Source of the DNA: Myxococcales bacterium
Lineage (GTDB): Bacteria > Myxococcota_A > Polyangia > Polyangiales > Houyiibacteriaceae
Length of the DNA: 64,000 nt
Direction: 5' to 3'
Assembly (NCBI GenBank): GCA_029861865.1
Contig: JAOTYL010000011.1
Coordinates: 84,517-148,516 of the forward strand
Part shown: positions 2,242-54,983 of the stretch, in pieces
Numbering within the stretch: the first letter of the stretch is position 1
Layout: every line of letters starts with the position of its first letter
Notes under the pieces: generated by a model
What the model saw: only the letters and a program-made list of their open reading frames with translations
Database searches by the model: none
What the model was told of the DNA's origin: nothing
Translations under genes and position numbers: made by a program

Positions 2242-3459
2242 ATGAAGGTTGCATACTTCACAAATTACTATCCGGCCGTTAGCCACACCTTCATCCGAAG
2301 AGAAATCGCAGGACTCGAGGCAAAGGGCGCCGAAATTCATCGCTTCTCCGTTCGCCGATACCCTGGGGAATTAGTCGATCCGGACGACATTGCGGAAGCG
2401 AAGCGCACCACCGTCATTCTTGACGACGGGACACTTGCACTTGTGCAGACGGCGCTTGGCGTCGCGATTGGCAGGCCGGTTCGCTTCGGGAAAGCGCTGC
2501 TGGCGTCGATACGGATGGGGCTGCGCTCAGATCGGGGCCTGCTTCGAAACCTCGCTTACCTCTTGATTGCGTGCAGGCTCCTGTTGCTTCTCACACGAAG
2601 CGGATGTCGTCACCTGCACGTCCACTTCGGCACCAACCCCACCGCCGTCGCATATCTATGTGGTATTCTTGGCGGGCCTCCATACAGTTTCACCGTCCAC
2701 GGACCTGATGAGTTCGACAGGCCGTGGGCGCTCAGCCTCACGGAGAAAATCGAGGGCGCCGCGTTCGTCGTCGCGATCAGCAGCTTCGGAAGAAGTCAGC
2801 TCTATCGACAATGCAGCCTGGAGCATTGGCCCAAAATCAAGATCGTGCGATGCGGCGTCGACCAGGGATTCATCGATGCGAATACGCCACCGATCGCAGA
2901 CCGCCCTCGCTTGGTTTGTGTGGGAAGGCTGTGCGCGCAGAAGGGTCAGCTGCTCCTCGTCCAGGCCACTGCCAGACTCCGCGACGCAGGCGTTACCCTC
3001 GAGCTCATCCTCGTCGGCGACGGCGAGATGCGACCTGAGGTCGAGGCACTGGTTCGAGAGCACCGGCTCGAAGACGTCGTCAAGATAACCGGTTGGGCAT
3101 CGGGCGACGAAGTCCGGAACTACCTGTCGTCCTCGCGTGCATTGGTCTTGCCGAGCTTCGCCGAGGGTCTGCCGGTGGTCATCATGGAGGCGCTCGCCCT
3201 CGGACGACCGGTTCTCACGACCTACGTTGCGGGGATCCCCGAGCTCGTAGAACCGAATCGTTGTGGGTGGCTTGTTCCCGCGGGGTCGGTCGACGTGCTC
3301 GCTGACGCGATGAGGGAGGTGCTGACGACTCCGGTCTCACGGCTCACCGAGCTCGGCCAGGAAGGACGTCGCAGGGTTCTTGCACTCCACGACCCGCGCA
3401 CGGCGACCAGACTGCTCTTTGAAGAGCTGAAAAGAAGCTTGGAGTCGAGCGCGCTATGA
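2242..3459 (+). CDS. Glycosyltransferase family 4 (GT-B, retaining)
   Basis: 405-aa ORF. The C-terminal EGLPVVIMEALALGRPVLTTYVAGIPELVE contains the E-x7-E signature. A 4-nt ATGA overlap joins it to the next gene. Confidence 0.8.
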   Translation: MKVAYFTNYYPAVSHTFIRREIAGLEAKGAEIHRFSVRRYPGELVDPDDIAEAKRTTVILDDGTLALVQTALGVAIGRPVRFGKALLASIRMGLRSDRGLLRNLAYLLIACRLLLLLTRSGCRHLHVHFGTNPTAVAYLCGILGGPPYSFTVHGPDEFDRPWALSLTEKIEGAAFVVAISSFGRSQLYRQCSLEHWPKIKIVRCGVDQGFIDANTPPIADRPRLVCVGRLCAQKGQLLLVQATARLRDAGVTLELILVGDGEMRPEVEALVREHRLEDVVKITGWASGDEVRNYLSSSRALVLPSFAEGLPVVIMEALALGRPVLTTYVAGIPELVEPNRCGWLVPAGSVDVLADAMREVLTTPVSRLTELGQEGRRRVLALHDPRTATRLLFEELKRSLESSAL

Positions 3460-4640
3460 CCGTCAACGCCCTGGGCACAATCGTTGCCATTGCTGCGGTC
3501 GTCCTCCTCATTCCTTCGCTGACTGTCTTTGTCGAGTGCGTCGCAAGCGTGTTTGTGACTAGCGGGCGGTGCATCGCACGGCCGAGCGGAGTTTCCGCAG
3601 CCGTTCTGATCCCGGCCCACGATGAGGAGAACATCGTCGGCGTCACGGTCGAGTCTGTTCGCCAACAGCTAATTGCTTCGGATCGCATCTTGGTCGTCGC
3701 GGACAACTGCCAGGATGGCACTGCGCGAGTCGCATCCGGGGCCGGAGCGGAAGCCGTCGAGCGCCGCGACCCCGACAAGCGCGGGAAAGGTTACGCGCTT
3801 GCGTTCGGCCTGGAGCACCTCGCGACCGACCCGCGCGACGTGCTGATCGTCGTCGATGCGGACTGCTCGCTCACGCCTGGTTCGGTCGACGCGTTGGTCG
3901 AAGGCGCGACGCGTCTTGGACGGCCCGTACAAGCGGACAACGTATCCCAGGCCACCGATCCCTCTGTTGTCGGCAGGATTTCGACCTTTGCAATGCTGAT
4001 CCGCAACCGCGTGCGCCCTCGGGGTCTGCTCAGGCTTGGGTTGCCATGCCACCTCATGGGCACCGGGATGGCATTTCCATGGGATGTGATTCACACGGCG
4101 CCGCGAGTCGGCGCAGAGCTCGCGGAGGACCTCGTGATGGGCATTGAGCTCGCCATGCGCGGCTACGAGCCGGCACTGTGCATTCAAGCAAGCGTTCGAA
4201 GCGAGCTTCCGTCCGAACCGAGCGCCGCTCTTCAGCAACGAGGCCGTTGGGAACGCGGCCACGTCGACACGTTGCTCCAGCACGGCCCCCGCCTCGTCTG
4301 GGCAGGAATAGCAAGGCGTCGACCCTCACTCGTATTCGCAGGGGCCGATCTGATGGTGCCGCCACTCGCGATGCTCGTCGGTTCGCTGAGCTTCCTGCTC
4401 ACCATCGCAGCCGTCGTGTTCGCGTTCGGAGGTCCCATCAATCCCCTCGCGCTTTCCGGAGCTTCGCTCGCTCTGGTCGTTCTCGGCGTGATGATAGGTT
4501 GGGCCCGCTACGGCCGCAAAGTCCTCCCCTTTCGATACCTGCTTCTTGCGCCACTCTATATGCTCTGGAAGATGCCTCTCTATTTGTCGTTTGTCACCGG
4601 AGGACGCGAGAGGGACTGGAAGCGTACACCACGAAACTGA
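3456..4640 (+). CDS. Membrane glycosyltransferase family 2, processive beta-glycan synthase type (NodC/PgaC-like architecture)
   Basis: 394 aa with an N-terminal TM helix. Motifs seen: AVLIPAHDEE, VVDADC (DxD) and QQRGRWERG (QxxRW). The C-terminus has 3-4 TM helices (LMVPPLAMLVGSLSFLLTIAAVVFAF..., LALVVLGVMIGW...). Confidence 0.8.
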   Translation: MTVNALGTIVAIAAVVLLIPSLTVFVECVASVFVTSGRCIARPSGVSAAVLIPAHDEENIVGVTVESVRQQLIASDRILVVADNCQDGTARVASGAGAEAVERRDPDKRGKGYALAFGLEHLATDPRDVLIVVDADCSLTPGSVDALVEGATRLGRPVQADNVSQATDPSVVGRISTFAMLIRNRVRPRGLLRLGLPCHLMGTGMAFPWDVIHTAPRVGAELAEDLVMGIELAMRGYEPALCIQASVRSELPSEPSAALQQRGRWERGHVDTLLQHGPRLVWAGIARRRPSLVFAGADLMVPPLAMLVGSLSFLLTIAAVVFAFGGPINPLALSGASLALVVLGVMIGWARYGRKVLPFRYLLLAPLYMLWKMPLYLSFVTGGRERDWKRTPRN

Positions 4641-4647
4641 GGTCGGA

Positions 4648-5418
4648 TTAGGAAGCCGCGACAAAGTCCACCGCCTCCGCGATCAACGCTTGATCCCGAA
4701 GCAAGGACCGGTGCCCGAGCCCCGAAGTCGTGATCAGACGGGAGCCACTCCAGGCCCGCGCTGTTTCCACGGAGTCTGTATATGGTATCTCGGTATCCCT
4801 GGGGTCGTGGAACAGCAGCGCGGGGATGTCGAGTTGCGGCGCGATTTCGTCCAACGCGGAGTCAAGCCACACCCTGGGGCCGAACAACTCGTCCATGCGA
4901 GCCACGAGCTCGTCCTCTACGGCATCGCCGAGATTCCTACGCGCGACAAACCTGTGCAGGGCTTCTCGCAGCTTGCAGATGGGACACAACAGCACGATTC
5001 GATCGACGACCACCCCACGGCTGACGGCCATCGCTGCGCTGGCAGCGCCCATCGAGTGCGCAATGATCGCATGGACCGGCGCCAAGCGTTGCGCAGCAGT
5101 CTCTACCACCTCGGAGAACTCGAACAAGTTCGAAAGATCCCCGGCGCTTCGGCCGTGCGCCGGCGCGTCCACTGCGACGGCCCGGAAACCGGCCTCGACA
5201 AGCGGCTGAACGAAGGAGCTGAAATGCGACGCGCGGCTGCCCCACCCGTGCATCAGCAAGACCGTTGGGCCGCTGCCCCAAGCGTACGCGGAGAGCGGCA
5301 GGTCTCCATGAGTGATCGTGAATTGCTCCGCCGTGCTCAGAAACCGCTGCTCACGAACGCTTTCCTGACTCCTGGGGGGCGGAGTGAACCATTGGCGCCA
5401 CGCCTCTTCGACAGACAC
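4648..5418 (-). CDS. Alpha/beta hydrolase
   Basis: The ORF is open to 5640, but its first 74 codons are Arg/Gly-rich and overlap the desaturase gene. I propose GTG 5418 as the start. Motifs seen: VLLMHGWGS (HG oxyanion motif) and IIAHSMGA (GxSxG nucleophile elbow). Confidence 0.7.
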   Translation of the reverse strand: MSVEEAWRQWFTPPPRSQESVREQRFLSTAEQFTITHGDLPLSAYAWGSGPTVLLMHGWGSRASHFSSFVQPLVEAGFRAVAVDAPAHGRSAGDLSNLFEFSEVVETAAQRLAPVHAIIAHSMGAASAAMAVSRGVVVDRIVLLCPICKLREALHRFVARRNLGDAVEDELVARMDELFGPRVWLDSALDEIAPQLDIPALLFHDPRDTEIPYTDSVETARAWSGSRLITTSGLGHRSLLRDQALIAEAVDFVAAS

Positions 5419-5498
5419 GCCGCTCGAGCCACCGGCCGGCGTGGCGACCGACCTTGGAACGGCTGAGCCCCTGCCCTTCTTTGGGGAGGCGGGTCGGC

Positions 5499-6488
5499 TC
5501 ACGTGGTGCGTCCCTCGGCGCGAGAGGGTTGGGCGAGCTTGGCAGCGATCTCCTCGGCGCTGGGCTCTCGCACCTTCCACGCCAAACCGAAGGTCTTCAT
5601 GAGCGTGATGAACCCGCCCGCAACGTCGACCTCCCACCACTTCAATCCGAGGTAGGCCGATCGGGGAAAGGCGTGGTGATTGTTCTGTAAGGACGAGCCG
5701 AAAGAGGGTAGCGCGAGCCAGAGGTTATTGGCGCTGTAGTCCCCGGTGTCGAAGGGGCTGGCGCCAAAGCGGTGCGCAAACGACGCAACGCTCCAGGTCG
5801 TGTGGTGGACGAGAAACATCCGTACCATTCCCCCCCAGAGGAAACCGCTCAGCGCGCCTACCCAGGTCCCGGTCGCTACCCAACCGATGACCGTCGGAAT
5901 AACGAGACCCGCCACGACAATCATGCCGTACATGTCGTTGATCTTCCTCAGTGCCGGGTCTTTGTTGATGTCCCTCGCGAACAGCGTGCAGTTCGTCACA
6001 TCGCCCATCAGCATGTGACCGATGTGGGCATGCCACAGTCCTACCATCGGCCCGAGCTTCTGCGGTTTCCCCTCCTTGTGGCGAACGCGGGGAGAGTGTG
6101 GATCGTCGCCAGTGTCGCTGTGGGCATGGTGCCGGCGGTGATCCGCAACCCAGTGCAGCAAGCGACCTTCGGCCGCCATCGACCCCAGGACCGCGAGGAG
6201 GTTCCGCATCCACCGATGCGTTTGGAAGGCCCTGTGTGCAAGGCTGCGATGAAGCCCGACCTCGATTCCGAAGGTCGTCAGCGCGAAGCCCCCGACCATG
6301 AGGCCGATCTCGAGCGCCCCGAAGCCTGTTACTGGGATCAACGCAACTGCCGCCACCGTGCCCAGAAAGGGCGCCCAGACGGTCGCCAGCGCGATTCTTC
6401 TGTGGCGCGGTCGAAGTGCCGCATCGCGTATTACGAGAGGCGGGCGTTTGCGTACGTCCGCCGACCGACTTTGGTTCGTCTCAGGCAT
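5499..6488 (-). CDS. Membrane fatty acid desaturase (acyl-CoA/acyl-lipid desaturase family), paralog 1
   Basis: Three His boxes: HRSLAHRAF, HRRHHAHSD, QNNHHAFP. TM helices lie upstream of box 1. The ATG at 6488 (MPETNQ) overlaps the upstream gene's stop by 8 nt; the ORF track extends to 6536. Confidence 0.85.
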   Translation of the reverse strand: MPETNQSRSADVRKRPPLVIRDAALRPRHRRIALATVWAPFLGTVAAVALIPVTGFGALEIGLMVGGFALTTFGIEVGLHRSLAHRAFQTHRWMRNLLAVLGSMAAEGRLLHWVADHRRHHAHSDTGDDPHSPRVRHKEGKPQKLGPMVGLWHAHIGHMLMGDVTNCTLFARDINKDPALRKINDMYGMIVVAGLVIPTVIGWVATGTWVGALSGFLWGGMVRMFLVHHTTWSVASFAHRFGASPFDTGDYSANNLWLALPSFGSSLQNNHHAFPRSAYLGLKWWEVDVAGGFITLMKTFGLAWKVREPSAEEIAAKLAQPSRAEGRTT

Positions 6489-7458
6489 GTTGAACCCTCT
6501 TGCGTCTGCTTTCGATCTGTTCTTTTGAGGGCACATTCACGTTCCAGGCCAGCCCGAGCCACCGGAACAGTCTGATGAACGCCATGCCGACGTCGGGTTG
6601 ATACCACCGGAATCCGAGCAGTGCTGAGCGCGGGAAGGCGTGGTGATTGTTCTGGTAGGCCGACCCGAAGGTGGGAACGGCGAACACCGGGTTGTTCGTG
6701 CTGAAGTCTTTGTTGTCGTAGGGCTGGCCCCCATACATGTGACTGAATGAACCGTTCGCGTAGTAAATGTGGTGGACGACAAACATCCTCACGAATCCGC
6801 CCCACAGTAGACCGCTCAGCGCTCCGAGCCAGGTTCCCGAGATCACACCACCGAGCACGGTTGGAATCAGGAGTCCGACGACGATCCAGAACCTGTAGGA
6901 ACGGTTGATCCTGGAGATCATGGGATCCCGGATCATGTCTCTCGCGAAAAGCGTACAGTTCGTGGGGAGTCCCTCGTACATGTTGCCGACTTGCGCGTAC
7001 CACAGGCCCTTCGATCGGCCCATCCTCTCGCCTCCCTTCTTGCCGATGCGGTAGTGCGGCGAGTGGGGATCCTCGGGCGTGTCGCTATGAACGTGGTGGC
7101 GTCTGTGCGTGGCCACCCAATAGACGGGACCGCCCTGGGCCGCCATGCAGCCGGCGACGGCGAGAAAGTAACGAAGCCAGGGCTTCGACTCGAAAGCTTT
7201 GTGGGACAGCTGCCGGTGGAAGCTGACCTCGACGCCCGCCATCGTGAGCACGTACATCCCGATCAGGAGACCGATCTCGAGAGCTCCGATTCCCCAGATG
7301 AAGGCGGTCGCGATGGCGATCACGGTGCCGATCGTCGGAACCCAAAGCGTGATCAAACCGAGCCGCCTCTTTGCGGCCATGACCGGCTCCGACTCGATGA
7401 TCGGTGAGGGCTTCTTCCGTGCTGCCGCGGGCGCCGCTTGGGTTGCAGAATTCGTCAC
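6481..7458 (-). CDS. Membrane fatty acid desaturase, paralog 2
   Basis: His boxes HRQLSHKAF, HRRHHVHSD, QNNHHAFP. It aligns along its whole length with paralog 1 (shared TNCTLFARD...DP...IN, LIPTV.GG/W blocks). Its start overlaps the ACP stop (ATGA). Confidence 0.85.
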   Translation of the reverse strand: MTNSATQAAPAAARKKPSPIIESEPVMAAKRRLGLITLWVPTIGTVIAIATAFIWGIGALEIGLLIGMYVLTMAGVEVSFHRQLSHKAFESKPWLRYFLAVAGCMAAQGGPVYWVATHRRHHVHSDTPEDPHSPHYRIGKKGGERMGRSKGLWYAQVGNMYEGLPTNCTLFARDMIRDPMISRINRSYRFWIVVGLLIPTVLGGVISGTWLGALSGLLWGGFVRMFVVHHIYYANGSFSHMYGGQPYDNKDFSTNNPVFAVPTFGSAYQNNHHAFPRSALLGFRWYQPDVGMAFIRLFRWLGLAWNVNVPSKEQIESRRKRVQHA

Positions 7459-49907: not shown

Positions 49908-50375
49908 GTGCTAAAGGCCCTCATCGAGGCATCGAGTCGCTTTTCTGGACGAGCGGGTCGTGTAATCGTCCCGACGGTGAAGCCTCGAACCCATCTAAAC
50001 GCAGATCAGAGCTTGTGTGGCTCGCCGCTCGAGCTCGGCGATGGGAGGGCTTCGGTGGCCCTCGACACCACGAATCGAATGGCGGTAGACGAACAAGGGT
50101 TGGTCCACGGAGGTTTCGTGTTCGGCCTGGCTGACTATGCCGCCATGCTCGCCGTCAACGACCCTAACGTGGTGCTCGCGGGCGCGCAGAGCAGGTTTCT
50201 GAAGCCGGTCAGGCGCGGCGACCGCGCGATCGCGCATGCTCGAACCGTTGCGACCGAAGGACCGAAACACGAAGTCGCGGTGCAAGTCAGCGTCGGGGCC
50301 ACCAGAGTTTTCGAAGGGATGTTTACGTGTTTTGTGCTCGGGCGCCACGTGCTCGAGGGAACCGGGAGCGAGTGA
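49908..50375 (+). CDS. PaaI/hotdog-fold thioesterase
   Basis: LELGDGRASVALD...DEQGLVHGGFVFGLADYAAMLAVN...ARTVATEGPKHEV... GTG start; the stop shares 1 nt with the next start (TGATG). Confidence 0.7.
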   Translation: MLKALIEASSRFSGRAGRVIVPTVKPRTHLNADQSLCGSPLELGDGRASVALDTTNRMAVDEQGLVHGGFVFGLADYAAMLAVNDPNVVLAGAQSRFLKPVRRGDRAIAHARTVATEGPKHEVAVQVSVGATRVFEGMFTCFVLGRHVLEGTGSE

Positions 50376-52123
50376 TGACTCAAGACGGCGGCGCCATCAT
50401 CGGAAAGACACTTGCTGCACGCGGGGTGAAGCAGCTCTTCACCCTCTGCGGCGGACACATTTCCCCGATCCTCATCGGAGCCAAAGCAAGCGGGATCGAC
50501 GTGGTCGACGTGCGAGACGAAGTCAGCGCCGTATTCGCCGCGGACGCCGTAGCACGCATGACGGGTATCCCGGGCGTCGCGGCCGTGACCGCGGGCCCCG
50601 GTGTCACCAACACCATCACCGCGGTCAAGAACGCGCAACTCGCTCAGTCGCCGCTCCTGATCTTCGGAGGCGCCGCCGCCACCCTGCTCAAGGGGCGCGG
50701 AGCGCTCCAGGACATCGACCAGATCTCCCTGATGGAGTCGATCACCAAATGGGCGGTATCTCTGAAGACGGTCAACAGCATAGGTCCGGCCGTCGAGAAA
50801 GCGCTCGACCTCGCGCAGGACGGCGTGCCGGGGCCCGTGTTCATCGAGGTGCCGATCGATCTGCTCTACCCCGAGGATCTCGTGCGGGACATGTTGATGA
50901 AGGAAAGTGGCGTCAAGGACGCCAAAAACCTCGGGTCAAAGGCACTCGAGCTCTACATGCGCGGGCACCTGTACCGCCAGTTTCATCAGCCGCACGTGAG
51001 CATCGTCCCCCCGATTCTGGAATCTCTGCCGCCAAAACCGAACCTGAGGGGCCCCCATGTGGACAAAGTCGGGTCGCTGCTCCGAGAAGCACAACGGCCG
51101 GCGCTGATCATCGGAAGTCAGGCGTTGGTCAACTGCCGCGATCCTGAACCGCTCGCTGACGCCGTGCGGGCGCTCGGAATGCCGACTTGGTTGGGTGGCA
51201 CCGCGCGTGGATTGCTCGGAAGGCGCAGCGAGATTCAGTTTCGCCACAAGCGAAGCGCCGCGCTCAAAGAGGCGGACTTGGTCATCGTCGCGGGCTTCCC
51301 GTTCGACTTTCGACTCGGTTACGGCAGAAGCATCTCGAGCCGGGCGACACTCGTGGCCGCCAACCTCAGCGCAAGCGAAATGAAGAAGAACCGCCGCCCT
51401 GAAATCCCCGTTCACATGCACGCCGGTGAGTTCCTGCGAGCGCTCGCAGCCAGCGTCGGCCGGAGCCTCGGCCCTTGGGACGATTGGTTTGAAACTCTGC
51501 GCGATCGAGAGGCCCAGCGAGATCAGGAAATCCAAGACCAGGCCAAGGCTCCCTCGGAGCTCGTCAATCCGCTCGAGCTATTTCTGAAGCTGGAAGACAG
51601 GATGAGCGATGACGCCGTCCTCGTCGTCGACGGTGGGGATTTCGTGGCGACTGCGGCGTACATCTTGAGGCCACGCAAACCACTTTCCTGGCTCGACCCC
51701 GGGGTGTTTGGAACTTTGGGCGTTGGGGGCGGCTTTGCGGTAGGAGCGTCGAAGGTGCGTCCGGGCAAGGAGGTCTGGTTGATCTATGGAGATGGCTCCT
51801 GCGCCTATAGCCTCGCCGAGATCGACACATACGTGCGGCACGGGCTTGCGCCCATCGCAGTCATCGGCACCGATGGGTCCTGGGCGCAAATTGCTCGCGA
51901 GCAGGTCCCGTTACTCGGCGATGACGTCGGCACGGTCCTTCGGCGGACGGCTTACCACGACGCTGCCCAAGGATATGGCGCGGTGGGCTTACTGCTCGAC
52001 GATCCGTCGAAGATCGACGACACCCTTGACAGAGCCAAGGAGGTCGCGGCTTCCGGAAAGCCGGTCGTCATCAATGTGCACATCGGGAGCTCGGAGTTTC
52101 GTAAGGGCTCGATTTCGATGTAA
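50375..52123 (+). CDS. Thiamine-pyrophosphate enzyme (acetolactate synthase large subunit / 2-hydroxyacyl-CoA lyase / oxalyl-CoA decarboxylase superfamily)
   Basis: N-terminal PYR domain [31 protein letters not shown]-terminal TPP-binding motif [32 protein letters not shown]. The ATG at 50375 reads MTQDGG. Confidence 0.85.
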
Positions 52124-53973
52124 TGGCGACCTGGATCCAGAAGCGCCGGGCGCGACGACGCCTGCAAGACACCGTGGGCCTTTGGTACCATCCGCAATAC
52201 AAGGCTGAGGCACTCGCCGAGAGCGCGCGCGTGCCAGGAATCGAGATAGCCCGAGGGGAAAGGATCCTCGGCGCGCTCGCTAGCGAGGACCTGATTCGCC
52301 CGAAACAAGTGCGACCGGCGCCGTTGGCCAAGCTCGCAAGCCTCGCGATGGTGCACTCCGATGCCTATCTCGAGAGGACCGCAAGGCCGGAGGACTTGGG
52401 CCAGATTTTCGGCCTCGAGCCCGCGCTGGTCGATGTCGACCCCATCCTCATCGCGCAGCGTCGCCAGGTGGGTGGGACCGTCGATGCCGCGCGCTGGGCC
52501 GCTCGCGAGCCTGGCCATCTGGCCTTCAACATCGGAGGTGGTTTTCATCATGCCGAGCCCGAGCAGGGTAGTGGCTTTTGCGTTTACAACGACATCGCGG
52601 TCGCCATCGCGTTGTTGCGTTCTGAAGGCTTCGATGCGCCCATCGCGATCATCGACCTCGACTACCATCAAGGCAACGGCAACATCGTCACCTTCGAAGA
52701 GGACGAGACAGTCTTCACTTACTCGATCCACGGTTCGGTATGGAGCCACGTCGAGGCAGCCGCCGACCAGCAGTTCTTGATGCCGTCGTATACCGATGAC
52801 GCCGCATACCTCGCCAAGCTCGACGAGACATTGCCAGCCGCGCTCGACGCCCATGAGCCCCAGCTATTGTTCTACATCGCGGGTAACGACGTGCTTCGAG
52901 GAGATCGCCTGGGCGAGTTCGCCATGACGCGAGAGGGGGTCCTCGCGCGGGATCGCCGGGTCATCGACCTGGCGCGGGCGCGGGGGTGCAATGTCGTGGC
53001 GACGCTCGGCGGCGGTTATAGCGAGGAAGCTTGGCTTTCGTCGAAGGACTTCATCCGGTGGCTCCTCACCGACGACGCCCAGATCTCAGTGGAGCCCGAG
53101 GTGAGCTTGTTCGAGCAGTACGAGGAGATCGCACGCGAGCTCGACCCATACGAGCTTCAGCGTACGAGCGGCGACTGGCAGATCACCCAGGCCGACTTGC
53201 TCGGAGACCTCGAGGGACCGCGCTACAAGTCGACCCGCATCCTCGACTTTTACTCGAAACACGGCCTCGAGTTCGCGCTCGAGAAGTACGGCCTGATGAG
53301 AGAGGCGCGCGAACGGGGCTTCGTGGAGCCGCGACTCACAGTCGACCCCACGGACCCCGAGCGACAGCACATCACCCTTCACGCCAAGAAGAACGGTCAG
53401 GAATGGTTGCTGGTAGACCTCGTGCTTCGCCGTATCCACATGGCAGCACCCAAGGGCCTCGACCCTCCTGATGATCTCGAATTTCTCTCGATCGAGTGGA
53501 TGTTGCTCCAGAACCCCACGACGGAGTTCTCGCTTCGGCAGCCCAAGTGGCCCGGACAGGATCACCCGGGGCTCGGAGTTGGCGAACAGCTCATGCACAT
53601 GTTTTTTCAAGGGGCGAAGCGGCTCGAGCTCGATGGGGTGATCAACCATCCTTCGCGCTATCACATCGCGTTCATCGGCGGCGCTCAGTTCTTCTTCTTG
53701 GATCCTGAGGTGCAGGGGCGTTTCGAGGCCATCCGCGAAGCGCTTGCCAATCTCGATCTCGCCGAAGCGGCTTGGAAGATGGAGCGGGGTGAAGTCCGCT
53801 GGGCCGATGATGGCACTCCGGTTGTGTGGGAAGCCGAGGACATCGTCGTCCCCACCAGCGATCGCCTTTTTGCCTACCTCGGCTCCCGCAACTACCAAGA
53901 ACCCCGCGCCCAAGCCCAGGCAGTGGCGAGAGCGCGAGGCATCGTTTTCGAACCTACTCGTAAGTCGTCGTAG
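52123..53973 (+). CDS. Histone deacetylase-family (arginase/deacetylase fold) enzyme fused to a roughly 290-aa C-terminal domain of unknown function
   Basis: The N-terminal approximately 320 aa carry GGGFHHAEPEQGSGFCVYNDIAVAI, IIDLDYHQGNGN and TLGGGYS. The C-terminal part (from about TDDAQISVEPEV to the end) matches no motif I recognise. The start shares 1 nt with the upstream stop (TAATG). Confidence 0.8.
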   Translation: MATWIQKRRARRRLQDTVGLWYHPQYKAEALAESARVPGIEIARGERILGALASEDLIRPKQVRPAPLAKLASLAMVHSDAYLERTARPEDLGQIFGLEPALVDVDPILIAQRRQVGGTVDAARWAAREPGHLAFNIGGGFHHAEPEQGSGFCVYNDIAVAIALLRSEGFDAPIAIIDLDYHQGNGNIVTFEEDETVFTYSIHGSVWSHVEAAADQQFLMPSYTDDAAYLAKLDETLPAALDAHEPQLLFYIAGNDVLRGDRLGEFAMTREGVLARDRRVIDLARARGCNVVATLGGGYSEEAWLSSKDFIRWLLTDDAQISVEPEVSLFEQYEEIARELDPYELQRTSGDWQITQADLLGDLEGPRYKSTRILDFYSKHGLEFALEKYGLMREARERGFVEPRLTVDPTDPERQHITLHAKKNGQEWLLVDLVLRRIHMAAPKGLDPPDDLEFLSIEWMLLQNPTTEFSLRQPKWPGQDHPGLGVGEQLMHMFFQGAKRLELDGVINHPSRYHIAFIGGAQFFFLDPEVQGRFEAIREALANLDLAEAAWKMERGEVRWADDGTPVVWEAEDIVVPTSDRLFAYLGSRNYQEPRAQAQAVARARGIVFEPTRKSS

Positions 53974-53994: not shown

Positions 53995-54031
53995 CAAAAA
54001 ACAGCGCGGCGCCCTGCCGAAACAGGGCGCC
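53995..54031 (-). terminator. Rho-independent terminator downstream of rnpB
   Basis: The minus strand reads GGCGCCCUG-UUUCGG-CAGGGCGCC, i.e. a 9-bp GC stem, followed by GCGCUGUUUUUUGG. Confidence 0.75.
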
Positions 54032-54032
54032 G

Positions 54033-54449: not shown

Positions 54450-54983
54450 CTAGATGGCCATGCCGCCTGCGCCACCTGCGCCACCTGCGCCACCTGCGCC
54501 GCCTGCGCCGCCCACGCCTCCGACTCCGCCCGCACCGCCAGCGCCTCCGACGCCGCCCGCACCGCCAGCGCCTCCGACGCCGCCCGCACCGCCAACACCG
54601 CCGACGCCGCCCGCACCGCCAGCACCGCCGGCGCCGCCCGCACCGCCCGCACCGCCGGCGCCACCTACGCCTCCAGCACCGCCGGAACCACCTGCGCCGC
54701 CTGTCCCGACATTGCCATCAGGGACGTCCGCGTCGGGCAGCCCCGCGTCAAGCACGATGACACGCTCGCAGACCTGGGTCTGGCACTCCGCGCGGGCAAG
54801 ACTGCTGCACGGCACGATGCGCCCGTCCGCGCATTTGAATTCCTGACAGCAAGCGAGGGTGTCGCTTGGATCGTTGCACAAGGCCACCTTGCCGCTCGGG
54901 CACACCGTTTCGATACCGCTGGCGCTCGAGCACCCGATCAGGAGCGCGGCAATCCCCACCAGCACGCGTGCGTACAACCTCAT
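54450..54983 (-). CDS. Lipoprotein with Cys-rich N-domain and C-terminal (Gly-Gly-X)n tail
   Basis: Lipobox LLIGC and a Cys-rich module of about 70 aa with 8 Cys residues after the lipobox Cys. About 27 consecutive GGX triplets follow (X = A/V/S/T), and the protein ends GGMAI. Confidence 0.7.
   Translation of the reverse strand: MRLYARVLVGIAALLIGCSSASGIETVCPSGKVALCNDPSDTLACCQEFKCADGRIVPCSSLARAECQTQVCERVIVLDAGLPDADVPDGNVGTGGAGGSGGAGGVGGAGGAGGAGGAGGAGGAGGVGGVGGAGGVGGAGGAGGVGGAGGAGGVGGVGGAGGAGGAGGAGGAGGMAI
54458..54700 (-). repeat. 9-nt (GGX-coding) tandem repeat inside the lipoprotein gene
   Basis: The plus strand reads gccacctgc gccacctgc gccacctgc gccgcctgc gccgcccac ..., an imperfect 9-mer array of about 240 bp. 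Confidence 0.9.

Follow-up and report, generated by a model that had tools for sequence, protein, structure and literature searches.

A class IV deacylase fused to an unnamed domain with a predicted GNAT-like fold in a Myxococcales bacterium

What does a domain of about 290 residues contribute to the histone deacetylase (HDAC)-fold enzyme to whose C-terminus it is fused? The question is raised by a gene in a 64,000-nucleotide stretch of DNA from a Myxococcales bacterium (contig JAOTYL010000011.1 of assembly GCA_029861865.1, positions 84,517 to 148,516 of the forward strand), which we call the window and number from its first letter. As judged from structure prediction, one chain combines an acyl-removing enzyme with a module that likely binds acyl-coenzyme A (acyl-CoA) or adds acyl groups, and such chains occur in bacteria of at least four phyla. 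The gene and the domain in question are located as follows:

52123..53973, plus strand: whole gene, one open reading frame (ORF) of 616 codons encoding 616 amino acids, HDAC11-like deacylase followed by a domain of predicted GNAT (acyl-CoA N-acyltransferase) fold
53080..53970, plus strand: C-terminal domain, residues 320-616, unnamed family with a GNAT-like predicted fold (HMMER, AlphaFold2, Foldseek)

A domain family absent from sequence libraries

The region singled out by the first-pass annotation of the window, 53080-53973, corresponds to residues 320-616 and the stop codon in the ORF translation, and the C-terminal strings quoted there match the translation exactly. Full-length homologues of the fusion protein are 610-620 amino acids long, and the mean column identity over the whole protein is 79% among 57 homologues. 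Residues 320-616 used as the sole query retrieve 188 homologues at E≤1e-3, which are 64-99% identical among the matches listed. With the C-terminal domain alone as query, HMMER searched 1.84 billion representatives exhaustively and returned 910 clusters at E≤1e-3, including 154 at E≤1e-30. Because homologues are found with the tail alone, the columns of the protein are this conserved, and the clusters number 910, the tail is neither a chance sequence nor a read-through artefact.

Residues 320-616 have no match in Pfam or NCBIfam at E≤1 and none in PADLOC or PHROGs. No PDB sequence is matched at E≤10, even with a 93-sequence profile. The earlier remark that about 290 amino acids beyond the HDAC core carry no recognized motif thus extends to all of these libraries. 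A link of the domain to defence or phages was rejected, since PADLOC and PHROGs returned nothing. The tail is a real, autonomous domain family absent from the sequence libraries. Annotation by NCBI/JGI labels the fusion protein 'histone deacetylase' or 'AcuC-like', and the standalone proteins, which come from candidate division KSB1, Zhuqueibacterota, and the cultured genus Lujinxingia, 'hypothetical protein'. Text searches aimed at a combination of HDAC and acetyltransferase, and the papers PMC11532494 and PMC13325672, yielded no description of this architecture or domain family; neither paper's text speaks of bacterial class IV enzymes with a further domain, whether C-terminal, additional, or fused.

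The architectures were counted in the best 150 of the 910 representative clusters. The full HDAC module and the domain are present in 55 of them, and a further 13 are fragments of the same architecture. The domain alone, in proteins of at most 345 amino acids, accounts for 77 clusters, 56 of which are complete and start near residue 1. Standalone proteins are about 305 amino acids long, and genuine standalone genes were confirmed on long contigs among unrelated neighbours. In three clusters, the domain is joined to tandem universal stress protein (Usp) domains, in both orders: P0231 and P0260 are domain-Usp-Usp, and P0208 is Usp-Usp-domain. A mycobacterial GNAT acetylates a universal stress protein (USP) (PMC6640162), and, by analogy, the domain-Usp chains may be fusions of an enzyme to its substrate or to a sensor. 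In a tree of the family, the fused and standalone states each occur in several clades, with 21 changes between them, at least 13 of which are forced by starred branches; the count is inflated by fragments at contig ends such as P0272.

The genome that contains the window encodes a second copy of the domain as a standalone protein of about 305-330 amino acids. Its surroundings (fumarase, a GNAT, ComEC, amine oxidase, and GAF-cyclase) gave no functional clue.

G000:C18:92886-93650, corresponding to L004 1420-2412 and L088 7806-8798, minus strand: standalone paralog, 34% identical to the C-terminal domain

Within the phylum of the window, 132 of 301 sampled genomes contain the domain, either as part of a fusion or by itself. 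When 185,579 species genomes were scanned with a sequence pattern, at least 409 loci were confirmed, and the best 80 of them, all in metagenome-assembled genomes (MAGs), were used for locus statistics. According to their record labels, these 80 belong to Myxococcota (Polyangiales, Sandaracinaceae, Haliangium, and Kofleriaceae), Acidobacteriota (Thermoanaerobaculia), Gemmatimonadota, and Bdellovibrionota. Of the 80 loci, 76 have the HDAC module immediately before the domain in the same frame run, three contain the standalone domain, and one is cut by the contig end. The homologues that were expected to always encode the two parts separately, had the proposed linkage been wrong, are in fact mostly fused. 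The phylum survey adds 20 distant fused loci, every one of which keeps the fusion.

Identity to the window protein, taken separately for each half, correlates between the halves with r=0.98 across 92 fused loci and r=0.81 across the 55 distant ones among them, and the C-terminal domain diverges slightly faster than the HDAC half (36.8% versus 41.5% identity). In a family with the standalone domain only, four of five genomes have an HDAC-like protein encoded separately at another place. A relative with a complete genome carries the domain and yields no HDAC match at E≤1e-5. The two modules are therefore linked strongly, but not obligatorily. The MAG 'bacterium isolate STL-UBA1' (L136) has two convergent paralogous fusion genes, at 3047-4939 on the plus strand and 4957-6825 on the minus strand, separated by 18 nucleotides.

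The deacylase module

The N-terminal module of the fusion protein contains the following elements:

52249..53031, plus strand: class IV (HDAC11-like) zinc-dependent deacylase catalytic domain, residues 43-303, Pfam PF00850
52534..52554, plus strand: GGGFHHA, tandem catalytic His142/His143 and foot-pocket motif, invariant in 57 homologues and aligned to GGTHHA of 9RJE
52654..52680, plus strand: DLDYHQGNG, zinc ligands Asp180 and His182, aligned to DLDVHQGDG of 9RJE
53008..53019, plus strand: GGGY, catalytic Tyr299, aligned to GGGY of 9RJE

Residues 43-303 match PF00850 with an E-value of 1.5e-46 and 159.5 bits, compared to the curated cut-off of 27.9. The best solved relative of the module is the Chlamydomonas HDAC11 homologue 9RJE (E 2.6e-42), which aligns with residues 13-305, followed by the Leptospira HDAC11 homologue 9GZ5/9RJD (E 1.3e-35). 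These structures were identified as HDAC11 homologues by Novakova et al. 2026 (PMC13325672). HDAC6 (1e-25) and HDAC1/2/8 (1e-12 to 1e-15) score far behind the class IV structures, for which the same PDB comparison gave 9e-42 (9RJE) and 4.8e-35 (9GZ5). By similarity rather than by phylogeny, the module is thus placed with class IV and farther from classes I and II. The first-pass annotation had put the end of the deacetylase core near residue 320, which is correct, because the alignment with 9RJE spans residues 13-305.

The deacetylase motifs noted earlier are all present, with GGGFHHA at residues 138-144, GFCVYN at 151-156, DLDYHQGNG at 178-186, and GGGY at 296-299. Residues His142, His143, Asp180, His182, Asp256, and Tyr299 are invariant in the 57 homologues and align with the motifs of 9RJE and 9GZ5, as does the AGND...GDRLG segment with the solved class IV structures. 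Asp178, Gln183, Gly184, Asn185, and Gly186 are also invariant together with Asp180 and His182, as are Gly297 and Gly298 together with Tyr299; Gly296 is conserved in at least 90%. The module is a class IV deacylase by sequence, with all catalytic motifs intact, and the aligned motifs and invariant catalytic and zinc-ligand residues indicate that it is apparently active.

The GGGFHH and xGGY motifs line the extended foot pocket of HDAC11-type long-chain deacylases (PMC11532494). Class IV enzymes of clade B are long-chain fatty-acid deacylases, whereas those of clade A have no activity on peptide substrates, and their natural substrates are unknown and have been proposed to be non-peptidic (PMC13325672). 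The module scores 148 bits against 9RJE of clade A and 126 bits against 9GZ5 of clade B, a comparison of two bit scores rather than of positions in a tree.

Predicted fold and conserved residues of the C-terminal domain

A full-length AlphaFold2 model calculated from close homologues was mediocre in the tail. The C-terminal domain alone, predicted by AlphaFold2 with 93 diverse sequences, gave a model (m27ae2f7c0bf1) with a predicted local distance difference test score (pLDDT) of 91.5 and a predicted template modelling (TM) score (pTM) of 0.86. The top Foldseek match of the model in the PDB is 7BYY (E 5.9e-4, probability 1.00), the GNAT toxin ItaT of E. coli (PMC7367177). Later matches include NatD, AtaT2, AtaT, HAT1, FeeM, Gcn5, TacT, GmvT, Ard1, and many histone acetyltransferase (HAT) domains of p300/CBP. 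About 45 of the 50 top matches are acetyl-CoA-dependent acetyltransferases of the GNAT, HAT1, and p300 types, and the homology probability is 0.96-1.00 for ItaT, AtaT, and AtaT2. The target-normalised TM-scores are 0.31-0.47 for small GNAT-type targets and 0.11-0.25 for the larger HAT1 and p300/CBP chains. A fold search in the viral structure library BFVD gave mostly unnamed weak matches and was uninformative.

The model of the domain, in full-protein residue numbers with model numbering in brackets, contains these parts:

53107..53214, plus strand: N-terminal helical extension of the domain, residues 329-364 (helices 10-20, 23-27, and 37-45)
53239..53853, plus strand: GNAT-like α/β core, residues 373-577 (secondary structure of the model, Foldseek)
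53860..53937, plus strand: C-terminal helices of the domain, residues 580-605 (helices 261-267 and 270-286); Tyr591 is 89% conserved

The predicted core consists of a short strand, two helices, four long antiparallel strands, a helix (168-181), a strand (186-189), helices, and two short strands, an order that fits that of canonical GNATs. Relative to the canonical fold, the model has in addition one long strand, a three-helix extension at the N-terminus, and two helices at the C-terminus. The N-terminal extension is part of the domain rather than a linker, because it is also present and conserved in the standalone proteins. The model relates the domain to the GNAT fold class, not to any one GNAT family. 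A structure prediction and a search for fold neighbours, suggested at the outset as a check, thus returned almost exclusively acetyl-CoA-dependent acetyltransferases in the PDB. The high-confidence model, with TM-scores of 0.3-0.47, supports the original guess that deacetylase and acetyltransferase-like modules are combined in one chain. No non-catalytic oligomerisation domain was found. Taken by itself, the conclusion that the tail is an autonomous domain with a GNAT-like fold is one in which we have good confidence.

The conservation of residues was determined from 243 sequences, most of them at no more than 50% mutual identity, and is given in full-protein numbering. It is concentrated in three segments:

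53476..53517, plus strand: strand equivalent to GNAT β4, with the signature (I/V)-E-W-L-x-L-Q-(D/N)-P, here Glu458, Trp459, and Gln463
53518..53583, plus strand: family-specific insertion of about 15 residues, followed by a motif-A-like loop P-G-Q-x-(H/Y)-P-G-L-G-x-(G/A)
53635..53670, plus strand: strand β5 and start of α4, G-V-I-N-H-P-S-R-Y-H-I-A (strand 186-189 and helix 194-199 of the model)

In the β4-like strand, position 458 is acidic in 93% of the sequences, and Trp459, Gln463, and Pro465 are conserved in 99%, 95%, and 96%, respectively; Asp432 of the preceding strand is acidic in 97%. The insertion contains Phe469 (95%) and an arginine at family position 473 (82%), which in the clade of the window is shifted one position earlier, to Arg472. 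The loop before α3 contains Pro477 (100%), Gly478 (96%), Gln479 (100%), Pro482 (98%), Gly483 (100%), Leu484 (97%), Gly485 (73%), and Gly/Ala487 (69%), and the central helix Arg500 (93%). Conserved around β5 are Gly/Ala505 (99%), Pro510 (96%), Tyr/Phe513 (94%), His514 (97%), and Ala516 (91%), and further on Trp569 (97%).

In GNATs, the general base, the pyrophosphate loop, and the general acid sit at these positions, and motif A reads (Q/R)-x-x-G-x-(G/A). The P-G-L-G-x-(G/A) loop of the family is likewise glycine-rich and precedes the central helix, with the Q/R replaced and about 15 residues inserted after β4. By analogy with what is generally known of GNATs, the residues listed above may act as general base, pyrophosphate loop, and general acid.

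The domain was also aligned by hhalign with a GNAT profile built from 30 PF00583 domains of relatives. The alignment pairs the I-E-W-L-x-L-Q strand with GNAT β4, skips the insertion, places HPGLGVG onto HRGRGVG, and continues through α3 and β5; the profile of 243 sequences reproduces this local match. None of the scores reaches significance (probability 1-4%, P 0.011-0.044, compared to P 0.049-0.21 for an unrelated HDAC and 0.7-0.9 for reversed controls), and therefore homology to GNATs cannot be called on sequence grounds. The first-pass annotation had likened the PGLGVGEQL...YH.A stretch to the CoA-binding strand-loop-helix of GNATs. In the model, the stretch does form the motif-A loop, α3, β5, and the start of α4, and the hhalign register agrees; the resemblance does not extend to a significant profile score.

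Proposed function and relation to known systems

We consider it somewhat probable that a class IV deacylase is joined in this protein to an acyl-CoA-binding module of divergent GNAT fold, whose role would be either amine acylation or the sensing of acyl-CoA. The gene product would be a cytoplasmic two-module enzyme. The first module (residues ~13-316) would be an HDAC11-type zinc amidohydrolase that removes an N-acyl group from a peptidic or non-peptidic substrate, and the second (residues ~328-610) an autonomous domain with a divergent GNAT fold. Acyl-CoA would be held in the V between the β4-like strand (I-E-W-L-x-L-Q) and β5, and its pyrophosphate would be bound by the invariant P-G-Q-x-H-P-G-L-G loop together with the N-terminal end of the helix that comes next. 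The second module may transfer the acyl group to an amine, or report the level of acyl-CoA to the deacylase. For transfer, Glu458 would serve as the general base and Tyr513/His514 as the general acid. The chain would then hold two opposing or consecutive N-acylation steps, as a writer and an eraser or by taking one acyl group off and putting another on. We infer the binding of acyl-CoA, the roles of the residues, the substrate, and the direction of coupling from the model and by analogy.

Actual transferase activity of the domain, as the model would allow, is more doubtful, and we give it somewhat less than an even chance. More tentative still is the extension to the whole family, in which the domain would found an unrecognised family (at least 910 clusters at 50% identity, in several phyla) of active acyl-CoA-dependent N-acyltransferases, with the class IV HDAC fusions as single-chain writer/eraser or acyl-swap enzymes. 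The fusions to the deacylase and to Usp domains fit, by analogy, N-acylation of a protein or an amine. If this extension is true, both modules may act on a USP-like protein or on a non-peptidic amine, which could reveal the natural substrates of bacterial and clade A HDAC11 enzymes. Among the classical deacylases, class IV HDACs are understood least, and a conserved partner domain to which they are fused in four or more phyla offers a direct way to their substrates. The partner domain is missing from Pfam and NCBIfam, and defining it would improve the annotation of about a thousand protein clusters. A domain that transfers acyl groups would make the protein a compact system in which to study how cells keep opposing acylation enzymes from cycling futilely, and one that only senses acyl-CoA would be a new way to tie deacylation to metabolic state.

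Several observations weigh against our preferred reading of the protein. The fold similarity is remote, with TM-scores of at most 0.47 and root-mean-square deviations (rmsd) of mostly 5-15 Å, and the profile similarity to GNATs is not significant. A search of 93 family members against Pfam at E≤10 returned scattered noise and no acetyltransferase family. Motif A is degenerate, with a proline for the usual Gln/Arg and the two glycine positions conserved in only 73% and 69%, and the insertion of about 15 residues between β4 and the loop could occlude a CoA site. Human O-GlcNAcase sets a precedent of a hydrolase with a GNAT-fold domain that does not bind acetyl-CoA (PMC3814719). Neither the 42 loci at ≤58% identity nor the 20 survey loci contain the unit of acyl-CoA-related genes described below.

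The degenerate motif A, the insertion, the non-significant profile similarity, and the O-GlcNAcase precedent also favour a pseudo-acetyltransferase, in which the GNAT fold would have lost acyl transfer, or never possessed it, and would instead recruit the substrate or sense a ligand (acyl-CoA, CoA, or a nucleotide-like molecule) and gate the HDAC11-like site. The fusion to Usp, a nucleotide-binding sensor family, fits such a regulatory role. However, the polar residues at the GNAT catalytic positions are 93-100% conserved, more than a scaffold usually needs, and polar conservation this strong argues for a catalytic or specific ligand site. Furthermore, standalone proteins make up half of the family, and the domain occurs in one complete genome without an HDAC match, so it has a job of its own. 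We regard a pseudo-acetyltransferase as rather unlikely.

It is also possible, with a similarly low probability, that the protein edits acyl groups of small molecules instead of writing and erasing marks on protein lysines. The HDAC module would cleave a non-peptidic N-acyl amine, and the GNAT-fold module would put an acyl group back on the freed amine or onto an intermediate of the pathway. In the clade of the window, this would take the form of joint fatty-acyl-CoA processing with the products of two neighbouring genes. The neighbours upstream of the fusion gene, and the hairpin downstream of it, are:

49908..50375, plus strand: hotdog-fold (4HBT/PaaI-like) thioesterase, first gene of the operon, Pfam PF03061 (E 2e-7)
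50375..52123, plus strand: thiamine diphosphate (ThDP) enzyme nearest to 2-hydroxyacyl-CoA lyases (HACL), second gene of the operon, translationally coupled to the fusion gene, Pfam TPP_enzyme_N/M/C; 7PT1 (E 1e-63)
54007..54032, no strand assigned: GC-rich, terminator-like hairpin 34 nucleotides past the stop codon, with 11 pairs, nine of them G-C

The three genes form a unit at 49908-53973 that is chained by overlaps of one nucleotide, with the fusion gene last. The ATG of the ThDP gene overlaps the TGA of the thioesterase gene (TGATG, 50373-50377), and the ATG of the fusion gene shares one nucleotide with the TAA stop of the ThDP gene (TAATG, 52121-52125). The best PDB match of the ThDP enzyme, 7PT1, is a 2-hydroxyacyl-CoA lyase. 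Its ORF encodes 598 amino acids from GTG 50327 and 582 from ATG 50375, the latter being the length called in relatives. The true start of the thioesterase gene is probably downstream of 49908, as the genes of relatives encode 132-136 amino acids. The hairpin lies between the fusion gene and a convergent gene for a Gly-rich lipoprotein (54450-54983) and is shared by both; its T-run is on the minus strand only, and no obvious intrinsic terminator can be assigned to the plus-strand operon itself.

The unit is present in all 34 loci in which the C-terminal domain is at least 65% identical and enough upstream sequence is available, and this conservation, together with the overlaps, favours small-molecule editing. 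So does the higher score of the HDAC module against clade A than against clade B, as clade A enzymes are inactive on peptides and have been proposed to act on non-peptidic targets (PMC13325672). However, the operon is limited to one clade and absent from the 20 distant loci and the 42 loci of other families and phyla, and the clade placement compares two bit scores, not branches of a tree. Both the Usp fusions and the top fold matches, which are protein and aminoacyl-tRNA acetyltransferases, lean towards macromolecular acceptors. The operon context supports an acyl-CoA ligand in the clade of the window and cannot be generalised to the family. When ORFs around 20 distant fused loci were clustered all against all, only the fusion gene recurred. 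Because no neighbour recurs in these loci, the operon does not define the function of the family in general, and the thioesterase and HACL-like genes were rejected as a general clue to it. The whole three-gene operon is also found, at 81-92% amino-acid identity, on contig CAXMND010000217.1 (L091), which is labelled 'uncultured Coxiellaceae bacterium' and is probably mis-binned or mislabelled.

Very unlikely is a C-terminal domain unrelated to GNATs, that is, a new α/β fold with, for example, a role in oligomerisation or localisation and a convergent or artefactual resemblance: TM-scores below 0.5, high rmsd, an hhalign probability of 1-4%, mostly unnamed weak matches in the viral library, and four long strands before α3 instead of the canonical three speak for it, but about 45 of 50 PDB matches are acetyltransferases of several HAT families with a probability of 0.96-1.00 for ItaT, AtaT, and AtaT2, the independent sequence alignment gives the same register of β4, motif A, α3, and β5, and the model is of high confidence.

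Our preferred reading, in which a divergent module of GNAT fold follows a class IV deacylase, can be compared with several known systems. The nearest GNATs by fold are the tRNA-acetylating toxins ItaT (7BYY), AtaT (6GTP and 7CHD), and TacT, together with NatD/Naa40, HAT1, Gcn5, and FeeM. The structure 6GTP is that of the Tyr144Phe mutant of AtaT. The C-terminal domain resembles these proteins in its predicted α/β core with a strand-loop-helix-strand arrangement, the glycine-rich loop before the central helix, the conserved acidic residue on the β4-like strand, and the Tyr/His just past β5. It differs from them in its size of about 290 residues, compared to 150-200, its extra antiparallel strand, its helical extensions at both termini, the conserved insertion of about 15 residues, the proline in place of the Gln/Arg of motif A, and the lack of significant sequence or profile similarity.

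Over their whole length, the N-terminal 305 residues can be aligned with class IV HDACs, which comprise HDAC11 and its bacterial and algal relatives (cluster 5 of Graf et al. 2024, PMC11532494). The tandem histidines, the Asp/His/Asp zinc site, the GGGY motif, and the GGGFHH foot-pocket motif are all kept. The solved class IV enzymes are single-domain chains of about 305-320 residues, whereas the protein described here has 290 more residues, which form a second folded domain.

Human O-GlcNAcase, a GH84 enzyme with a C-terminal pseudo-HAT domain (PMC3814719), is by analogy also a modification-removing hydrolase with a GNAT-fold domain at its C-terminus. However, it is a glycosidase unrelated to the zinc amidohydrolase described here, and its domain is not among the top 50 fold matches. 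We offer it only as a precedent for a non-catalytic outcome.

The acuABC genes of Bacillus subtilis encode the GNAT AcuA and the HDAC-type AcuC, the writer and the eraser of acetyl-CoA synthetase acetylation (PMC8556138). No acyl-CoA synthetase or AMP-binding enzyme was found among the called neighbours in the window or in three relatives. An acetylation switch of the AcuA/AcuC type was rejected for this locus, as the deacylase is of class IV, the partner has no GNAT match in Pfam, and an AMP-binding neighbour is lacking. In both systems, a protein of GNAT fold and a zinc deacetylase of HDAC fold form a single genetic unit. They differ in that AcuA and AcuC are products of separate genes and AcuC is class I-like, whereas a class IV enzyme and an unnamed GNAT-like family share one polypeptide here. 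Pairings of a GNAT fold with an HDAC are already known; the one predicted here is distinguished by a new domain family, a class IV partner, and the fused form.

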